From an uncultured Thiothrix sp. (lineage in GTDB: Bacteria; Pseudomonadota; Gammaproteobacteria; Thiotrichales; Thiotrichaceae): 64,000 bases of DNA. Positions 43,514 to 54,913 of this stretch are shown here, in pieces. The stretch spans positions 9,729 through 73,728 of the forward strand of contig CAZTUZ010000002.1 in NCBI GenBank assembly GCA_964617055.1, in the 5' to 3' direction. Each line of letters begins with the position of its first letter. Positions within the stretch are counted from its first letter, which is position 1. Below the pieces are notes generated by a model, which saw only the letters and a program-made list of their open reading frames with translations, did not search any database and was not told the DNA's origin. A program made the translations under genes and the position numbers.

Positions 43514-45367
43514 GTGGGTAACTTTTTAGACTTTTCTTCACAAACACTGTTACCGTTGTATTTTTTACTAGCGGGTATTCTGTTGTTGCTCTTATTAGGT
43601 AGTTTGTTTGCGCGTCGTACCCGTCATAACGCGCGAAATCAAATATACCTTGCCCAACAAAACATGCTGGTATCTGCTTTAGCTGATGTGCAAGAGTTGG
43701 CAGTGTTAGTGGATGAAAAAGGCATTATTAGTTTTATCAACCCAGCGGCCGAGCGACTCTTAAAAACCAAGATGCGTAGCGCACGAGGTAGAGCGTGTGG
43801 ACAGTTTTTTACGCTCTTTGACCCATTAACTCGTACACCACTGCTATGGCTGGATCGGGCAAAATCCAATACCAATGAAAGGCTGGATATTCCTCTGGCT
43901 CTTTTGAGTGCAGGTGGTTTAAATGAATTGCGTGTGAGTTGTTCGGTGCAGTTACTGCAATATGAAGGTCATGATGGTTTCTACTTCATGTTGCTAATGC
44001 GTAATCAAACGGAATTACAAGAATTGCAAGTTCGAATGGAATATATCGGCTTGCATGATGCGCATACCAGCTTATTAAATCGTAAGGGTTTCGAGATTCG
44101 TCTGAAATTAGCTATCGATCAAGTTCGCCAACATGGTGTTAAACATTCATTTTGTTTAATTGCAATGGATCAATTTAAACTCGTGAATGATTCAATGGGG
44201 CATTCTGGCGGTGATGAGTTAATAAAACGTATTGCTAATTTATTGAAAGATGAAATTGATGCGAAGCGCGATATTTTAGCTCGATTAGGGGGTGATGAGT
44301 TTGGTATTTTGCTGCAAGAGGTTGAACCTTCCGTTGCTATTCAAGCAGTAGAGAGGATTTACAAAAAGTTATCGCAGTATAATTTCTTATGGAATGATAT
44401 GAATCAGCAGGTCACAGCTAGTATTGCATTCGTTCCATTCTATAAAGCCTTGGTATCCCCTAATAATCGTCAAATTTCAGTAAGCCGCATTTTATCAGTT
44501 GCTGATAATGCGTGCCGCGTTGCAAAAACTAAAGGTGGTAATCGGATTCATATTTATCGACCTAACGACCAAGAAGTTAATAAGCAACGTGGTAACTTAG
44601 TGTGGTTGGGACGTTTGAAAAAGGCATTTGAAGCGGGAAATTTCAGGTTAGTTGCTCAGCCTATTCAGTCTTTGGATGTTAAGGCGTTCAAAAAGCCATT
44701 TCATCATTACGAGGTATTAATTCGGTTGTATGATGAAGAGGAACAGCCAATTCCACCTGATGAGTTTATCCCTGCTGCTGAATACTTCTCTATGATGCCA
44801 CGCCTAGATCGTTGGGTAGTGCGCAAGTTATTGACTTCCTTACGCGACATTACACAACGTGTGCCATGCCCTGTTTTTGCGGTGAATTTGTCAGGACAAA
44901 GTTTGGATGAACCAGACTTTCTCCAATTTGTGCTGGATGAAATTCATAATGCTGGTATTAGTCCGGCTATGTTGTGTTTTGAGATTACGGAACGGGTGGC
45001 GATTCACAATTTGGAATTGGCTCACAAGTTTATCGAAACATTAAAAAATTTGGGCTGTAGTTTTTCATTGGATGATTTCGGTACAGGAGTTAGCTCGTTT
45101 TCGTATTTGAAGTCTTTGCCGTTGGATTATCTAAAAATTGATGGCAGTTTTATTAAAGATATTGCAACGGATACTGTCGCTGAGGCAATGGTGCGTTCAG
45201 TAAGTCAGGTCGGGCATTTAATGGGTGTCAAGGTGATTGCTGAATATGTCGAGAACGATCAGGTTATCCAAATCGTGCGCGATATTGGTGTAGACTATGG
45301 GCAGGGCTATGGTATTTCTAAACCCATTCCGCTGGAAGATGTTATTAAGCGTCATGTTTTACAATAG
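43514..45367 (+). CDS. membrane-anchored PAS-GGDEF-EAL c-di-GMP turnover protein
   Basis: 617 aa with an N-terminal TM. The GGDEF motif is RLGGDEFGILL. EAL-domain motifs are YEVLIRL, FAVNLS, EITE, DDFGTG and QGYGISKP. The gene is visibly more AT-rich than its neighbours. Confidence 0.9.
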   Translation: MGNFLDFSSQTLLPLYFLLAGILLLLLLGSLFARRTRHNARNQIYLAQQNMLVSALADVQELAVLVDEKGIISFINPAAERLLKTKMRSARGRACGQFFTLFDPLTRTPLLWLDRAKSNTNERLDIPLALLSAGGLNELRVSCSVQLLQYEGHDGFYFMLLMRNQTELQELQVRMEYIGLHDAHTSLLNRKGFEIRLKLAIDQVRQHGVKHSFCLIAMDQFKLVNDSMGHSGGDELIKRIANLLKDEIDAKRDILARLGGDEFGILLQEVEPSVAIQAVERIYKKLSQYNFLWNDMNQQVTASIAFVPFYKALVSPNNRQISVSRILSVADNACRVAKTKGGNRIHIYRPNDQEVNKQRGNLVWLGRLKKAFEAGNFRLVAQPIQSLDVKAFKKPFHHYEVLIRLYDEEEQPIPPDEFIPAAEYFSMMPRLDRWVVRKLLTSLRDITQRVPCPVFAVNLSGQSLDEPDFLQFVLDEIHNAGISPAMLCFEITERVAIHNLELAHKFIETLKNLGCSFSLDDFGTGVSSFSYLKSLPLDYLKIDGSFIKDIATDTVAEAMVRSVSQVGHLMGVKVIAEYVENDQVIQIVRDIGVDYGQGYGISKPIPLEDVIKRHVLQ

Positions 45368-48854: not shown

Positions 48855-49958
48855 ATGTCAGGAAATAGCTTTGGAAAACTTTTTACCGTGACCTCCTTCG
48901 GTGAGAGTCATGGACTCGCAATCGGCTGCATCGTGGATGGCTGCCCGCCCGGACTCGCCCTCACGGAAGCTGATATTCAAATTGACCTTGATCGGCGCAA
49001 GCCGGGGCAAAGCCGCCATACCACGCAGCGGCGCGAACCCGATGAAGTGCAGATTCTTTCCGGCGTGTTTGAAGGCAAAACCACGGGGACACCGATTGCC
49101 TTGATCATCCACAACACGGATCAACGCTCGAAAGATTACGGCGACATTCTGGATCGTTTCCGCCCTGGGCACGCGGATTACACCTACTACAAAAAGTACG
49201 GCCTGCGTGATTACCGTGGCGGCGGGCGTTCGTCAGCGCGGGAAACCGCGATGCGCGTAGCGGCGGGTGCAATCGCCAAAAAATGGCTGCACGAACGTTA
49301 TGGCGTGGTGATTCGCGGTTATTTGTCGCAACTAGGGCCGATCAAAGCGGAAACCTTGGATTGGGATGAAATCGCCAATAACCCGTTTTTCTGCCCTGAT
49401 GCGAGCAAAGTCGCGGCGATGGAAGCCTACATGGACGCGCTGCGCAAAGAAGGCAATTCCATCGGCGCGAAAATCACCACAGTGGCAAGTCATGTGCCCG
49501 TGGGTTGGGGCGAACCGATTTTTGACCGTTTGGATGCGGACATTGCCCACGCGATGATGTCGATTAATGCCGCGAAAGGCGTGGAAGTCGGTGCAGGTTT
49601 CGCCTGTGTGGAACAAAAAGGCACAGAACACCGCGACGAAATCACCATGCAAGGTTTCCTAAGTAACCACGCGGGTGGCATTTTGGGTGGGATTTCCTCA
49701 GGGCAAGACATTGTGGTTCACACCGCGTTCAAACCCACGTCCAGTATGCGTATTGCGGGGCAAAGCGTGAATTTGTCCGGCGAAGCGGTGGAAGTCATTA
49801 CCAAAGGTCGCCATGACCCGTGCGTGGGGATTCGTGCCACGCCGATTTGCGAAGCCATGTTAGCCATTACGCTCATGGATCACGCCTTACGCCATCGCGC
49901 CCAGAATGCTGATGTTGTTACCAGCCTACCCAATATTCCCGCCTCACCAACGGTATAA
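48855..49958 (+). CDS. aroC: chorismate synthase
   Basis: 367 aa. [20 protein letters not shown] is colinear with E. coli AroC. Confidence 0.97.
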
Positions 49959-49972
49959 TCCCTTGATTCAAC

Positions 49973-50003
49973 GCCCTTTCCCACAGCAGGAAAGGGCTTT
50001 CGT
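49973..50003 (+). terminator. terminator after aroC
   Basis: gccctttcc (49973-49981) pairs with ggaaagggc (49989-49997), followed by tttcgtt. Confidence 0.6.
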
Positions 50004-50072
50004 TCGGGAAATCGTTAACGGTTTGCTACAATAATGATGTGACATGCAAACGATAGCTGAGGAAACATTGCC

Positions 50073-50327
50073 ATGAAGCGCACGATTGAAATTGATTGTC
50101 CGCCGGAACTGCTGATTGGACTCCACCTAAATGCAGAACGTTTTGCTGAATACCTCAAACGGCAGGCAGCCATTAGCTTATTCAACGAAGGTCGGATCAG
50201 CTCTGGAACGGCAGCAACGTGGCTGGACATTTCTCGCGTTGAATTTTTGCATTTAGCATGGGAAGCAGGGGCTGTTTTGTTGGAGGATTCCAGTGACGAT
50301 TGGGAACGGGAAACGGCTTTGTTATGA
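50073..50327 (+). CDS. UPF0175-family antitoxin-like protein
   Basis: 84 aa. The pattern IEI..PELL..L.L....F......A...L...G.IS.G.AA..L..SR.EF..L is typical of UPF0175 (COG2886). Confidence 0.75.
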   Translation: MKRTIEIDCPPELLIGLHLNAERFAEYLKRQAAISLFNEGRISSGTAATWLDISRVEFLHLAWEAGAVLLEDSSDDWERETALL

Positions 50328-50800
50328 GTATCGTGTTCAGTAATACCACGCCATTTATTGCGCTCGCCAGTATTGATCGCCTTGATCTTATGTTTCGCTG
50401 TTTTGGTAATGTCCATGTCGTGACGGAAGTGCTGGACGAATGTGCAGTTGGTGGCAGAATCAAAGTCCCTAATTTGCGCCTTTTGGATTGGATTATTCCT
50501 GTAGATTCATTGCCTGTGGTACACACCACGGTGTTATTAGAGTTGGATAAAGGCGAGAAGCACACGATTGACATGGCAAAGCGCAGTGCTGCGGATTGGG
50601 TCATTATTGATGAAAAAATAGGGCGTAATTTGGCGGAATACCTTGGGTTGCGCGTCACAGGAACGCTAGGTATCTTGTTGAAAGCGAAACAACAGGGCTG
50701 GCTTGATTCGTTTGTGGATGCCGTGTACGCCATGCAGCAATGTGGTATTCGTTATCATCCTGATTTGGTCAGAAAACTCGCCAAGCAGGTGGGTGAGTAA
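50324..50800 (+). CDS. DUF3368-family PIN-like toxin-like protein
   Basis: The ATG at 50324 overlaps the antitoxin stop (ATGA). MSIVFSNTTPFIALASIDRLDLM...LDKGEKHTIDMA...GTLGILLKAKQQG fits DUF3368 (COG2405). Confidence 0.75.
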   Translation: MSIVFSNTTPFIALASIDRLDLMFRCFGNVHVVTEVLDECAVGGRIKVPNLRLLDWIIPVDSLPVVHTTVLLELDKGEKHTIDMAKRSAADWVIIDEKIGRNLAEYLGLRVTGTLGILLKAKQQGWLDSFVDAVYAMQQCGIRYHPDLVRKLAKQVGE

Positions 50801-50816
50801 CGCCCACCCACAAGTT

Positions 50817-53480
50817 TTACATCGGTAGCGTTGTCAAAAACGCGCTGACGCTGGCGGCGGCAGACATCAGCCAAGTAATGGTTTCGCTGGCTTCTTTGAT
50901 GTCTTTGCCGAGCGTGATTGCGCCGAGTGTGCCGTCTTTCATATTGGTTAGGAGTTGGGATAATTTGCCGCGTGTTTCGGGGCTGGCGGTTTCGAGGTTT
51001 TCCAGATGCTCCCGAATTTGTTTCAGCTCCCCATACGCATTGGCTTTGATTTCAAAGTCTGCATCGTGATTTTGCACCTGTTTCATTAACGTCGTTAAGG
51101 CGTTTTGGAAGTCGGTAATCCGTTGTTTGTCATGCTGATTAATAACTACTTTTCCTGAAACGGTTTGATAATGACCCGACCCGCCAATTGCGCCGACGGG
51201 AGCGTGGACATTAATCGTTTGGTGAGTCACGTTGGCGGTTTCTTGCTGCTGTTTCTCTGCTGTCATAATAAACCCCATAATTTTGGTTAAGTCGTAATCA
51301 ATGCCCGTGTCAGAACTGGTAATGGTTTGCCGACGTGCGGCTTCTTTGATGAGGCGATTATACGGGGCTGTTTCCCGTTGTGCTTTGTGTGCGATAAAAC
51401 CTAACTGGTCGCGTCGGGCAAAATCTGGCAAAACCACGTTTTCGGTGAAGCTCAACCCTTTCATGGGTTCTAATAAGCGGCGAATTTCGTCGCGTAAGAC
51501 GGCTAAATATTCGCGTAATGCACCACCTTGCACCCATAAAGACAAACGCCGTTGGGTGTAATCAACCTGCAAACGCGCTTTGGCTTGATACAGTTGGTTA
51601 CGGAGAATCACACCTTGTTGCCAAACCAATTGTTGGTGCTGTTGGTTTTCCAATATTTCTTTATGCCGTGACACAATCAAATTGGGCATTAAACTGCGTG
51701 GCAATAAACCGTCAAAATCAAACTCAAAAGCAACGGTATCCGGTGTTTCTTGGAAGTAACCGCGTAAATCGGGCTGGTTTTCAGGGAGTTTATCGGGGAT
51801 AACCAACCGTTTTTGGTGCTGTTGAGTTTTATCGTGCATTTCGTAACACAAACCGAACCGCGACATGGCATCCACAATAAAACGGCATTTGGCGGTGGGG
51901 TAAGTCAATACATTACCCAGCTCGTCCACGACTTGTTCAGCTTGCAAAATACTTCGCACATCATTATCACACAGTAAACCCCATTGCCTTGCCGTTGTCT
52001 CAGCGTAAAGCAGGGTATAAACGCCGTAGGTGAGCCAACGCGGATTGAGCACATACGCCTCTGACCATGCCAAATCAGGAAAATGCACGATTTCGCCCAA
52101 ACTATCCAATAAACCCAAAAACGCGGTTTTATCCAGCCCGACTTGACCAATCTCGTGTTCACCACACAGCTTATCAAAGGCTTCATCATCTAAAAACGCA
52201 CTGTGGCGCGAACGCTCCCGCAGTGTTTCCAGCATGGTGAATTGTTGTGGGGTAAACATGACTTGGTGCGTATCTACCCGCTTTAGATTTTCCACCAAAT
52301 CATCGTGAAAAGTCTGAAAACGGTTACGGTAGCTTTGTTCGGTTGCGGTGCAAGAAATGGCGTAAAAATCGAGAATATTCGGGTATTTTTCGCGTAAGGC
52401 ATTCATGTCCAGATTAACGCTGGCTTTGTCGGCTTTATTGCCGACCAGCATCACGGGTGCTGCATTACCAAAGGCTTTAATGTGTTCCAACCAATAGGCG
52501 GCGCGGTCATTGGCGGTCATGTGTTCGCGTTTTTCGCGTTCTGAACCCGCATCCACCAACAAAATGTATAAACAGCGTTCACGCAGGAAAAATTGGTGCA
52601 TGGCGTGTGACATGACTTGTCCGCCGAAATCCCAAAAGCGGGCTTTAATTGCGCTGTTGGGTAAACACCACTGCTTGATTTCAATACCAGCGGTCATGCT
52701 TTCTTGATCTTCAATGACTGCCTCACCGTGCAAGCGTCGAATGAGCGAGGTTTTGCCAACTGCGCCATCACCAATGAAAATTGCCCTCACCAAATTCAGC
52801 GGCGATAACGCAGGTACAAACAAACTCATGAAATACGCATTAGTTGCTTTTGCCCCTTGCACCAAAATCTCATCTGGAATACTAAACCACTTAGCTTCTA
52901 CTTCAGGGGCTAGCGGTTTGCCATTGATACGATCCTCATACCAATCTAGCCAATGTTCAAAACCCTCGTCTAACTCCAGAACCGCTTGCCGAAAACGTTG
53001 GTAAAGAGCTTGCCATTCCTCAGGAATACCCTCTGACCATAATGGCAGTGCAGCGAATTGTTGTGCCGATGATATTTGTTTCGTCTGTGAGGGCAATTGA
53101 AGGCGTTGCAAATCCAGCTCAATGGCTACGGTTATCGTGGTTTGTTTAGCGGCATTGGCGGCGACATAGGCTCTAGCAGAGGTATAGGCAGCAGTGCCTC
53201 TGATGGTGGCATTGGCTCTGGAGGAGGCAGTGCTAGCAGCACCAGAAGTAACGTAGACGGCATAGGTGGCGGAATCGTCTCTGATGACAGAGGTATCGGC
53301 GGCTCTGGCGGCTTTATAGGCGGCATCGGCGGCTTTTTCGGTATAGGCGGCGGCTTTGGCATTCACTGCGTAACGCAGCGCGTTCCAGACCGCCAATAAG
53401 TGCTTGCTACGTTCTGTTTTTTTCCAATAGCTAAAATTGCCATGCTTATTATCGTGGATCAACAGTGGCAATACGCGCAA
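50817..53480 (-). CDS. Roc-COR (ROCO-type) GTPase with unassigned N- and C-terminal modules
   Basis: 887 codons from the TTG at 53480. G1 is GDGAVGKTS, G3 WDFGGQ, G4 GNKAD and G5 SCTA. These are followed by COR-like blocks (YVLNPRWLTYGVYTLLY, FIVDAMSRFGLCYE, LVIPDKLPENQP). An SD plus ATG at 53561 is in the same frame but is separated by a TAA at 53513-53511. Confidence 0.8.
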   Translation of the reverse strand: MRVLPLLIHDNKHGNFSYWKKTERSKHLLAVWNALRYAVNAKAAAYTEKAADAAYKAARAADTSVIRDDSATYAVYVTSGAASTASSRANATIRGTAAYTSARAYVAANAAKQTTITVAIELDLQRLQLPSQTKQISSAQQFAALPLWSEGIPEEWQALYQRFRQAVLELDEGFEHWLDWYEDRINGKPLAPEVEAKWFSIPDEILVQGAKATNAYFMSLFVPALSPLNLVRAIFIGDGAVGKTSLIRRLHGEAVIEDQESMTAGIEIKQWCLPNSAIKARFWDFGGQVMSHAMHQFFLRERCLYILLVDAGSEREKREHMTANDRAAYWLEHIKAFGNAAPVMLVGNKADKASVNLDMNALREKYPNILDFYAISCTATEQSYRNRFQTFHDDLVENLKRVDTHQVMFTPQQFTMLETLRERSRHSAFLDDEAFDKLCGEHEIGQVGLDKTAFLGLLDSLGEIVHFPDLAWSEAYVLNPRWLTYGVYTLLYAETTARQWGLLCDNDVRSILQAEQVVDELGNVLTYPTAKCRFIVDAMSRFGLCYEMHDKTQQHQKRLVIPDKLPENQPDLRGYFQETPDTVAFEFDFDGLLPRSLMPNLIVSRHKEILENQQHQQLVWQQGVILRNQLYQAKARLQVDYTQRRLSLWVQGGALREYLAVLRDEIRRLLEPMKGLSFTENVVLPDFARRDQLGFIAHKAQRETAPYNRLIKEAARRQTITSSDTGIDYDLTKIMGFIMTAEKQQQETANVTHQTINVHAPVGAIGGSGHYQTVSGKVVINQHDKQRITDFQNALTTLMKQVQNHDADFEIKANAYGELKQIREHLENLETASPETRGKLSQLLTNMKDGTLGAITLGKDIKEASETITWLMSAAASVSAFLTTLPM

Positions 53481-53584
53481 AGCACAACGAGCCGCAAAAA
53501 TGGTACACAGTTAAGGGTCAATACCCTGTAATCGTTGCTCAATTTCTTCCCGTGTCAGCATGTTGCTCTCTCCGCTTGCACCGT

Positions 53585-53604
53585 CAATATTGCGCAATAT
53601 TGCG
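53585..53604. promoter_or_regulatory. tandem 10-bp repeat caatattgcg x2 (each contains the palindrome CAATATTG) at the ROCO gene promoter
   Basis: Read directly. The repeats sit between a minus-strand TATAAT (53612-53607) and the GGAGAG SD of the ATG at 53561. Confidence 0.4.
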
Positions 53605-53728
53605 TCATTATAGGGTAAAGCGTGGCAATTAAGCAGGATAATGAGAGCCGCTAATCCTCGCGCTGCTGTGTTCAAACGCGCTGTGGTAGTATGCGGGGCT
53701 TTCCATTACCGCGCTATCGTTTCACGTT

Positions 53729-54913
53729 ATGACATCACCATCCTCAATATCCGCGCCCGTCAAGCCGCCGTATGTGCGGCTTTCGACGTTTTATTTCGTG
53801 TATTTTCTAGCGTTGGGGGTATTTGTTCCGTATTGGTCGTTGTATTTGCAGCACGTCGCACAGTTTTCGCCTGCGCAAATCGGCGAGTTAATGGCGGTGT
53901 TCATGGCATCGAAAGTGGTCGCGCCGTTTGCGTGGGGTTGGTTGGCAGATTACACAGGGCAGCGATTACGCATTATCCGGTTGGCGAGTTTCTTGGCGAC
54001 GCTGTGTTTTGCGGGGATGTATTGGCAGCAAACTTACGCTTGGGTGTTGGTGGTGATGGCGGGGTTTGGGTTTTTCTGGAATGCGTCATTGCCGCAGTTT
54101 GAAGCCTTGACGCTGGCGCATTTGGGCGCGGAGGTGCGGCGTTACAGCGCGATTCGTTTGTGGGGTTCGATTGGGTTTATTGTGATGGTGTTGTGGTTGC
54201 CGACGTGGTTAAACGGGCAATTCGCGCCTTTATTGAATGTGTTATTGCTGTGTTTTGCGGCGATTTGGTTATCGACGTGGTTGGTGCGCGACAAGCCGCA
54301 AACCTTCGCCGCCCCTGCTCGTGGTGAATTGCGCCAAGTGTTGAAACATTCTGGCATTGGCATGTTATTGCTGGCGTGCGCGTTGCAACAAGCCAGCCAC
54401 GGGGTTTATTACACGTTTTTCAGCATTTATTTGGAAGATCACGGTTATTCGCTGGGTTTTGTGCGTTGGATGTGGGCATTGGGTGTGATTGCTGAAGTGA
54501 TATTATTCGTGTTCATGCACCGTTTGATTCAACGCTTTGGCGCGAGCCGTTTGTTTATACTGGCGTTGTTTTTAACAGGCGTGCGCTGGATTTTATTGGG
54601 GAAATACGTCGATGTATTGCCGATGTTGTTGCTGGCACAGGTATTACACGCGGCGACTTATGGCTTATTCCATGCGGCGGCGATTCATTTAGTGCATCAT
54701 GTGTTTAGTGGACGTTTGCAAGGACGTGGGCAAGCGTTATATTCCGGTGTCAGTTATGGCTTAGGTGGCGCGGTGGGGAGTTTACTCAGCGGTTACAGTT
54801 GGCAATGGTTCGGCGCGGAACAGACGTTTTTCATTGCCACGGTGGTGGTGAATGTGGGGTTATTCGTGAGTTTGAAAGCTTTGTTGGAATTGGGGAGGAA
54901 ATATGCAGACTGA
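53729..54913 (+). CDS. MFS transporter (HcaT/PPP-like family, tentative)
   Basis: 394 aa with 12 predicted TM-like hydrophobic segments. N-terminal motif YFVYFLALGVFVPYWSLYL...WGWLADYTGQR. Confidence 0.8.
   Translation: MTSPSSISAPVKPPYVRLSTFYFVYFLALGVFVPYWSLYLQHVAQFSPAQIGELMAVFMASKVVAPFAWGWLADYTGQRLRIIRLASFLATLCFAGMYWQQTYAWVLVVMAGFGFFWNASLPQFEALTLAHLGAEVRRYSAIRLWGSIGFIVMVLWLPTWLNGQFAPLLNVLLLCFAAIWLSTWLVRDKPQTFAAPARGELRQVLKHSGIGMLLLACALQQASHGVYYTFFSIYLEDHGYSLGFVRWMWALGVIAEVILFVFMHRLIQRFGASRLFILALFLTGVRWILLGKYVDVLPMLLLAQVLHAATYGLFHAAAIHLVHHVFSGRLQGRGQALYSGVSYGLGGAVGSLLSGYSWQWFGAEQTFFIATVVVNVGLFVSLKALLELGRKYAD

Follow-up and report, generated by a model that had tools for sequence, protein, structure and literature searches.

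What does a Roc-COR GTPase do in a small insert between housekeeping genes of an uncultured Thiothrix sp., and does it belong to a conflict or defence system? The window, that is, the whole 64,000-nt stretch analysed here, is taken from contig CAZTUZ010000002.1 of GenBank assembly GCA_964617055.1 (positions 9,729 to 73,728 of the forward strand), and all coordinates below count from its first letter. A sequence-only reading of this stretch had described a stand-alone Roc-COR GTPase with two unassigned flanking modules, possibly a single-gene sensor, switch and effector. Our best explanation, to which we assign a probability of about one half, is that the gene product is a ROCO-type GTPase in a single chain, from an accessory family of conflict or defence type that forms a variant of the AP-GTPase systems. 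Judged from its sequence, the protein is best read as a variant, and not a strict member, of these predicted conflict systems, because the leucine-rich repeat (LRR) array that defines them is absent. The earlier interpretation, still a hypothesis, points in the right direction and is partly supported.

The Roc-COR gene was identified in the open reading frame (ORF) listing as a single minus-strand ORF, 50817..53480 (-), encoding 887 aa from a TTG start, and residue numbers below refer to this protein. Pfam assigned Roc (PF08477, aa 234-351, E 4.3e-23), COR-A (PF16095, aa 416-563, E 1.6e-19) and COR-B (PF25497, aa 583-724, E 3.7e-19), which place the Roc G domain (aa 233-400) at 52281..52784 (-), COR-A at 51792..52235 (-) and COR-B at 51309..51734 (-). 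The G motifs follow one another with the expected spacing (G1 GDGAVGKTS, 237-245; switch-II WDFGGQ, 283-288; G4 GNKAD, 347-351; G5 SCTA, 376-379), followed by the COR blocks LGEIVHFPDL (461-470), YVLNPRWLTYGVYTLLY (476-492), CRFIVDAMSRFGLCYE (532-547) and LVIPDKLPENQP (559-570), so that every motif quoted by the sequence-only reading was found at the residues it gave. Its statement that the protein has no LRR, ankyrin, kinase or TPR part was confirmed by Pfam (LRR threshold E <= 0.1), and NCBIfam returned just a sub-threshold small_GTP match. A PDB sequence search identified the Methanosarcina barkeri Roco2 RocCOR structure 4WNR as the nearest solved relative (E 1.9e-59), followed by the Chlorobium tepidum Roco structures 3DPU, 6HLU and 8R4B (E about 1e-51). 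These Roco alignments (E 1e-51 to 2e-59) span residues 200-686 and include a short pre-Roc linker, and LRRK2 matched more weakly (E about 2e-12 over residues 218-492). Membership of the ROCO family, by virtue of Roc, COR-A and COR-B together, is secure. The intact motifs and the homology to CtRoco and MbRoco2 suggest GTP binding and hydrolysis coupled to dimerisation; CtRoco passes through a nucleotide-dependent monomer/dimer cycle (PMC5714945, PMC11052575), which the window protein presumably shares.

The family is a large set of ~900-aa proteins in which an N-terminal all-alpha domain, Roc-COR and a C-terminal module follow one another; matches to it were returned for Thiothrix, Leucothrix and, with several entries, Methylovulum, and the window holds one Roc-COR copy. 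Among 113 family tails (proteins and loci are cited here by P and L numbers), 108 consist of the helical module, three are TIR domains (P0047, P0052, P0059; PF13676/PF01582 in P0047 and P0052) and two are transmembrane tails (P0053, P0119). An exhaustive profile search with the C-terminal module against 1.84 billion cluster representatives (E <= 0.001) returned 637 representatives that carry it, and in nearly every one of the 150 listed among these 637 the module lies at the C-terminus or a few residues from it. It ends classical LRR-Roc-COR-A-COR-B proteins (P0172, P0211, P0239, P0253) and a 1033-aa protein, P0254, in which YukD, PT-HINT, LRR, Roc, COR-A and COR-B precede it. In P0254, secretion- and pretoxin-type domains are joined to a Roco core. 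The module is likewise found after a Walker A/B ATPase that matches AAA_35 weakly (P0167), after a receiver (REC) domain with a kinase-like TCAD9/APH domain (P0266), and after EAD11 in ~250-aa proteins (P0160 group). In a 35-member group, mostly of ~460-525 aa (P0180 group), it follows ~380 N-terminal residues labelled PF27061 Gasdermin_protease, a label that comes from precomputed annotation alone, the family being absent from the local Pfam; no gasdermin gene adjoins P0180 (L114:8001-9578). On these comparisons the C-terminus appears to behave as an effector slot, which is supported by the TIR and transmembrane swaps in 5 of 113 tails and by the sharing of the module with NTPase, kinase and EAD11 proteins.

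The operon of P0160 (L113:175-3911) encodes an EAD11-ABC ATPase, a 465-aa protein without a Pfam match and the EAD11-module protein. In the passages of Kaur et al. 2020 on EAD coupling (PMC7159879), the position held here by the EAD11-module protein is that of the effector. The three-gene operon looks like a candidate for an undescribed EAD11-coupled system with the same C-terminal module. A six-frame profile search found no second copy of the module in the 64-kb window or in 115 loci, its matches lying solely inside Roc-COR genes, which argues against a homotypic adaptor acting in cis.

The C-terminal region (aa 722-887) carries an undescribed module of ~140 aa that combines a Gly/Asn/Val-rich segment with a helical bundle. 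Its first part (51138..51308, -) is a low-confidence linker with the Gly/Asn/Val-rich extended segment (NVTHQTINVHAPVGAIGGSGHYQTVSGKVVIN), and in the AlphaFold2 model the first ~55 residues after aa 722 have a predicted local distance difference test score (pLDDT) below 50. The segment containing NVTHQTINVHAPVGAIGGSGHYQTVSGKVVIN corresponds to INIG..A.I.APV.IAD.I.NSFN of the module's main subtype. It resembles amyloid-signalling motifs of the BASS/HET-s type; no such function is claimed for it. The bundle itself (aa 782-887; 50820..51137, -) was modelled as five helices with a pLDDT of 87-92 and ends in WLMSAAASVSAFLTTLPM (aa 869-887), its last helix. A PDB sequence-profile search with the module gave generic bundles or coiled coils alone, none of them significant. 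No Death-like, CARD or pore-former fold appeared among the listed PDB profile matches or the listed Foldseek matches, which comprised the best 50 of 314 in PDB and the best 50 of 408 in BFVD. The module has no model in the local Pfam, and precomputed annotations with newer families add no further domain. No Pfam EAD or EACC1 match was found in the Roc-COR protein, and the module is distinct from EACC1, which has been characterised as one conserved transmembrane helix. The earlier description of two unassigned modules around a stand-alone Roc-COR core therefore stands: both were unmatched in Pfam, NCBIfam, PHROGs, PDB sequence searches and Foldseek.

At the other end, the N-terminal region (aa 1-232) was modelled with AlphaFold2 on a 96-sequence alignment as an all-alpha domain of 12 helices (mean pLDDT 80.7; predicted template modelling score, pTM, 0.76), and Foldseek found no fold match for it in PDB (best E 5). 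Three parts were distinguished. Conserved 'head' helices, with the family consensus ..EI...L..VDP.LC..FA.RC.LRVLPLL....F.YW....R..LL, occupy 53361..53561 (-; pLDDT 87-93). They are followed by a hypervariable Ala/Thr/Ser/Tyr-rich insert (aa 41-140; 53061..53360, -; pLDDT 53-70) made of degenerate 21-nt heptad repeats (AADAAYK), and by a conserved Trp-rich alpha module (aa 141-232; 52785..53060, -; PLW..W..GFE.WLDWY.DR..G.P; pLDDT 92-97). The Trp-rich stretch quoted by the sequence-only reading sits at aa 154-206 of the latter, and the last ~30 residues of the module are the pre-Roc linker common to LRR-type Roco proteins, the 4WNR and 6HLU alignments starting at residues 200-202. Identity to seven orthologues is 11-23% over aa 61-140 versus 70-95% across most of the remaining protein, and the length and sequence of the insert are wholly different even among orthologues of 70-73% identity. 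Tandem Repeats Finder (TRF) reported period 21 in the insert, where GCC makes up 23 of 29 Ala codons (27 of 68 elsewhere in the gene) and third-position G is 8%; the 21-nt repeat and the skewed codon usage point to repeat slippage. Diversification by a retroelement had looked attractive given the Ala/Thr/Ser/Tyr/Asn/Asp composition and NNC codon bias. No second copy of 53061-53360 was found in the window (best match 20 nt) and no reverse transcriptase among the genes of the insert at the aroC-MFS site, and a diversity-generating retroelement was rejected because the window lacks a template copy and because the predominance of Ala, together with a 21-nt repeat, is better explained by slippage.

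Beyond the family, the distribution of the N-terminal domain was assessed by a word-indexed profile search, which is weaker than the exhaustive search. A profile of the conserved N-terminal blocks found just short proteins without Pfam domains, as did the word-indexed search with the C-terminal profile. Three of these short matches were checked in context and all proved to be pieces of split family genes, including two N-terminal pieces (L111, L112).

The gene is accessory at its site. Alignment with the empty site of L002, a terminator scan and synteny delimit an insert of ~3.7 kb (49998..53676), bounded by the aroC terminator (49973-49997) and by the conserved block upstream of the MFS gene, from about 53677. 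The neighbours agree with the earlier description by ORF listing and Pfam: aroC (48855-49958), a toxin-antitoxin pair, the MFS_1_like gene (53729-54913), then birA and coaX. The nearest relatives of the window's MFS, birA and coaX are Thiothrix metagenome-assembled genomes. The sequence-only reading had proposed variability of the aroC-MFS interval as a check, and the outcome favours an accessory insert. The site is empty in 14 Thiothrix-group loci, where aroC and MFS are neighbours 0-610 bp apart; L002, the nearest relative that could be scored (aroC 96% and MFS 81% identical), is among them. It is filled, with differing toxin-antitoxin cargo, in four genomes (the window, L021, L022/L023 and L115). 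No tRNA, flanking direct repeat, integrase or transposase was found in or beside the insert, so a mobile element was rejected.

In the window, the pair accompanying the Roc-COR gene consists of a UPF0175 antitoxin gene (50073..50327, +; PF03683 E 1.3e-14; PADLOC PDC-S70 E 1.3e-06) and a DUF3368/COG2405 PIN-like toxin gene (50324..50800, +; PF11848 E 2.2e-10; PDC-S70 E 6e-37). The PDC-S70 match to the DUF3368 protein begins at residue 9 of its TTG ORF, and the DUF3368 ATG overlaps the UPF0175 stop (ATGA, 50324-50327). As in type II toxin-antitoxin systems, the genes are adjacent and overlapping with both families matched, and PADLOC carries the combination as candidate PDC-S70; DUF3368/COG2405 has been classed as a toxin-antitoxin toxin (PMC5499597). 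The DUF3368 and Roc-COR genes are convergent; their stop codons lie 16 bp apart, and the terminator scan found no terminator-like site between them. The order aroC, UPF0175, DUF3368, convergent Roc-COR is common to the window and L021, where DUF3368 is decayed (L021:12779-13061). In L022/L023 (L022:9066-13346), Uma2 lies on the aroC side and the UPF0175/DUF3368 pair on the MFS side, and in L115 (L115:2126-5942) the aroC side holds a 76-aa gene and a TumE-type gene and the MFS side a MazE-like gene. The differing cargo in L022 and L115 indicates that the pair is a variable co-resident of the site rather than a constant partner, and the comparison suggests that toxin-antitoxin cargo turns over quickly at this aroC-MFS hotspot.

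The reading frame requires a correction. Orthologues set the extent of the whole gene at 50817..53561 (-), a length of 915 codons in which codon 17 is an in-frame stop and the terminal stop is counted. The span 50817-53561 had been given as that of an 887-codon ORF; the 887-aa ORF exists, at 50817..53480, within a longer span interrupted by a stop. Residue 1 of this ORF aligns with residue ~28 in nearly all full-length homologues, and the 81 nt between 53480 and 53561 hold the ancestral ATG, 16 codons and an in-frame TAA (53511..53513, -). DNA alignment at this site reads GAC CCT TAA CTG in the window, GAC CCC AAA CTA in L021 and GAT CCC AAT CTA in L022. The upstream frame of the window gene translates as MLTREEIEQRLQGIDP, the stop and LCTIFAARCA, or, taken further, as MLTREEIEQRLQGIDP, the stop and LCTIFAARCALRVLPLL, where orthologues read MLTKEEIEAKLKGVDPKLCAIFAARCSLRVLPLL. 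The stop deletes the first 27 residues of the conserved N-terminal head, and the sequence-only reading had overlooked it. The TTG opening the 887-aa ORF (53478..53480, -) is a Leu codon in orthologues and at most a possible re-initiation codon, with no evident Shine-Dalgarno-like sequence just upstream; the public protein record P0001 has the identical TTG start. Native expression signals (53559..53612, -) comprise TATAAT (53607-53612), GGAGAG (53568-53573) and ATG (53559-53561). They recur in L021 and L022, the -10-like hexamer upstream of the common ATG being TATAAT in the window and L021 and TATACT in L022, together with a purine-rich stretch in all three. The TATAAT-like -10 was not called by a consensus promoter scan. 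The window copy is, on this alignment, a truncated or recently inactivated allele or the product of a sequencing error, and as sequenced it would yield either no protein or an N-terminally truncated one. The other 887 codons are intact, which implies that the lesion is recent, a sequencing error, or tolerated via weak re-initiation. Family genes with frameshift splits or partial deletion were also seen in L109:3605-6480, L111:5001-7543 and L112:5001-7788, reflecting either frequent decay or assembly errors.

The sequence CAATATTGCG is repeated in tandem at 53585-53604, downstream of the -10 hexamer and ahead of the Shine-Dalgarno sequence, and each of the two copies contains the palindrome CAATATTG. 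This site, which is not conserved in L021 or L022, could be a candidate operator.

Distant homologues occur in varied surroundings. One Roc-COR homologue lies between flanking transposases (L024), another in a HigB/HEPN-MNT/PemK island (L026), and in L028 (L028:2817-6726) a TIR-ending member and a UPF0175/DUF3368 pair interrupt a V-type ATPase operon. A further Roc-COR lineage, whose gene is cut by the contig end, lies directly downstream of a UPF0175/DUF3368 pair in L033 (L033:140-3069), as does the Roc-COR gene of L028. The pairs of L028 and L033 are 68-81% identical to each other and their Roc-COR genes 46%, and both pairs are ~27% identical to that of the window. About 75 metagenome and look-up loci yielded 150 neighbours after deduplication, which represented 148 Pfam families, the commonest being PIN (n=5), and a conserved operon partner was found nowhere among them. 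About 8-10 of the 150 match PADLOC models (JetA, HEC-02A/B, REase_II, ThsB-like, AriA, NsnB and PDC candidates). Since the varied neighbours include no conserved partner, the Roc-COR gene appears to be autonomous, in surroundings that are often, not always, rich in toxin-antitoxin or defence genes.

These features resemble a published scheme. Kaur, Iyer, Burroughs and Aravind (eLife 2021; PMC8195603), in the passages concerned, describe bacterial AP-GTPase (Roc)-COR proteins with rapidly evolving N-terminal LRRs as predicted counter-invader systems with at least 24 alternative C-terminal domains, including TIR, caspase, trypsin, FGS, GT4 and EADs. As described in these passages, such systems share with the window protein the single chain, the variable sensor end, the Roc-COR switch and a swappable C-terminal slot able to hold TIR. 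The window protein's module also ends classical LRR-Roc-COR proteins. AP-GTPase-COR systems are biased towards multicellular or filamentous organisms, with several paralogues per genome that differ in effector, and the occurrence of the family in filamentous bacteria (Thiothrix, Leucothrix) may be a further likeness. Unlike them, the window protein has no LRR array, a hypervariable non-LRR insert lying in the analogous place, and its C-terminal module, for which Pfam also has no model, is not named in these passages. The AP-GTPase-COR system is itself presented there as a computational prediction. The sensor-switch-effector concept is already published for LRR-type Roc-COR proteins (PMC8195603, in the same passages); the new elements are a non-LRR sensor-like domain and a widely shared, uncatalogued C-terminal module.

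Other known proteins offer partial comparisons. The solved prokaryotic Roco proteins (4WNR, 3DPU, 6HLU, 8R4B) share the Roc-COR-A-COR-B tandem, all G motifs and the pre-Roc linker, whereas the window protein has an all-alpha domain with a hypervariable heptad insert in place of N-terminal LRRs and an extra C-terminal module after COR-B. LRRK2, LRRK1, DAPK1 and MASL1 have Roc-COR homology in common with it; in contrast to these eukaryotic ROCO proteins, it lacks kinase, LRR, ankyrin and WD40 parts, is bacterial and is encoded by an accessory gene. Single-gene STAND NTPase defences such as Avs and bNACHT place sensing, NTP-dependent switching and an effector activated by oligomerisation in one polypeptide. 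The same one-protein logic may apply here, and the C-terminal module also follows a Walker A/B ATPase in P0167. The window protein, however, switches through a Ras-like GTPase equipped with COR for dimerisation, where these defences use a STAND ATPase, and the two are unrelated in sequence. MLKL 4HB, HeLo and CC-NLR proteins are comparable by analogy only, in having a terminal small helical bundle on an NTPase switch and a moderately hydrophobic terminal helix. No such domain was among the listed Foldseek or PDB profile matches, and the window module is C-terminal, not N-terminal.

In the mechanism that we propose, the N-terminal domain would take the role of the LRRs as sensor and auto-inhibitor, detecting a trigger and otherwise holding the protein off. 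Binding of the trigger would shift the nucleotide-dependent monomer/dimer state of Roc-COR, and this shift would gather and activate the C-terminal modules. TIR effectors need to oligomerise, and clustering of the C-terminal modules by Roc-COR fits that need. The outcome would be growth arrest or death of the infected cell, executed by the helical module. That the bundle acts on a membrane is the weakest step, drawn by analogy, and is doubtful. The terminal helix, called a hydrophobic tail by the sequence-only reading, is only moderately hydrophobic, with a Kyte-Doolittle mean of 1.36 over 19 residues; this is under a typical transmembrane score, so that it is not a clear transmembrane segment. 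The most specific version of the mechanism is a ROCO immune receptor with a hypervariable alpha-helical sensor, Roc-COR oligomerisation and a C-terminal module that is a new cell-killing executioner, probably at the membrane, which LRR-Roco, P-loop ATPase, kinase and EAD11-coupled systems would have in common; taken with all its parts, it would be rather unlikely.

Several observations weigh against the conflict or defence reading in general. The PADLOC check proposed earlier went against it, as the Roc-COR protein matched no PADLOC-DB 2.0 family at E <= 0.1. Many homologues lie among ordinary metabolic genes, most neighbours being housekeeping, and a phage origin was rejected, with no relatives on IMG/VR contigs and no PHROGs match. 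Roc-COR identity among the filled genomes is 70-73%, near that of the flanking MFS (71-73%), which makes vertical residence with losses as likely as mobility. Instead of a selected sensor surface, the hypervariable insert could be a linker that is free of constraint and prone to slippage, and, being unalignable, it does not allow the ratio of nonsynonymous to synonymous substitutions (dN/dS) to be computed. The hydrophobic tail is not conserved in other subtypes of the C-terminal module, the bundle matches only generic four-helix bundles, none significantly (E >= 0.29 in PDB and >= 0.02 in BFVD by Foldseek), and the window copy has a nonsense codon near its start. The C-terminal effector idea of the sequence-only reading gains from a slot that holds other tails and from a module that travels. 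Full-text literature searches turned up no experiment that demonstrates defence by any Roc-COR protein.

The module might act as an adaptor or oligomerisation domain, EAD- or Death-like, that recruits a separately encoded partner carrying the same module. It is small, alpha-helical and C-terminal or nearly so in nearly all listed matches, and many unrelated proteins carry it, among them forms of ~120-170 aa that appear to stand alone. The passages of Kaur et al. on bacterial AP-GTPase proteins list 'different EADs' among the C-terminal domains (PMC8195603), and in the 35-member Gasdermin_protease-labelled group the protease is the more obvious effector. Against this, no second module was present in the 64-kb window or beside the examined Roc-COR homologue loci, the module is the sole non-adaptor part of the 250-aa EAD11-module proteins, and TIR, an enzyme, fills the same slot in relatives. 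The short match P0123/L109 is moreover a fragment of a frameshifted Roc-COR gene, so that short module matches are not firmly stand-alone, and we consider the adaptor role unlikely. An ordinary signalling GTPase without a conflict role, serving for example cell-cell or filament biology, with the toxin-antitoxin genes nearby by coincidence, would account for the lack of a PADLOC match, the mostly housekeeping neighbours of homologues and a gene divergence equal to that of flanking genes; bacterial Roco proteins have no established function, and those studied, such as CtRoco, serve as LRRK2 models. It fits poorly with the absence of the gene from the same site in 14 related genomes, the existence of TIR and transmembrane variants, a C-terminal module in common with EAD11- and TCAD9-type proteins, and the frequency of split or decayed copies (L109, L111, L112 and the window). 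Several copies are also found in Methylovulum psychrotolerans records (P0069, P0071, P0074, P0077, P0132), and we regard a plain signalling role as unlikely too. Least probable of all, and in our view improbable, is a single three-gene system of UPF0175, DUF3368 and Roc-COR, with the PIN-like toxin as GTPase-controlled effector or safeguard. The pair does lie beside Roc-COR in three lineages (the window clade, the TIR variant L028, 42% identical, and L033), and PADLOC lists it as candidate system PDC-S70. Yet the relative orientation is not fixed: the pair and the Roc-COR gene converge in the window and L021, diverge in L022 and run in one direction in L028 and L033. L021 has a decayed DUF3368 beside an intact Roc-COR gene, the L115 orthologue has MazE-like and TumE-type genes instead, and the pair occurs in just 5 of about 85 loci. 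The ~27% identity between the pairs of the two clades implies separate acquisition, and published three-component COG2405 systems use HTH and DUF955, not GTPases.

The variant AP-GTPase reading, were it true in its immune-receptor form, would give the LRRK2-type Roc-COR switch an ancestral immune role that is tractable in one gene; for an ordinary signalling GTPase the value would be much smaller. The only immunity claim for a bacterial Roc-COR protein found in the literature is the comparative-genomic prediction for LRR-type versions. The family is a compact single-gene test case with natural controls: relatives with TIR or membrane tails, empty and filled alleles of the same chromosomal site, and an N-terminal nonsense allele. 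Conflict-associated proteins of at least six kinds carry the C-terminal module, so that a functional assignment would annotate hundreds, and knowing what the module does would reveal how Roc-COR switching is coupled to an output domain, which is relevant to LRRK2 biology.

Elsewhere in the window, a GGDEF-EAL gene (43514-45367) has a G+C content of 0.37-0.43 over the stretch that the profile covers, from 44000 to the gene end, versus ~0.5 in its neighbours, and a GGDEF-EAL gene is found at the corresponding syntenic place in L021 and in L115.

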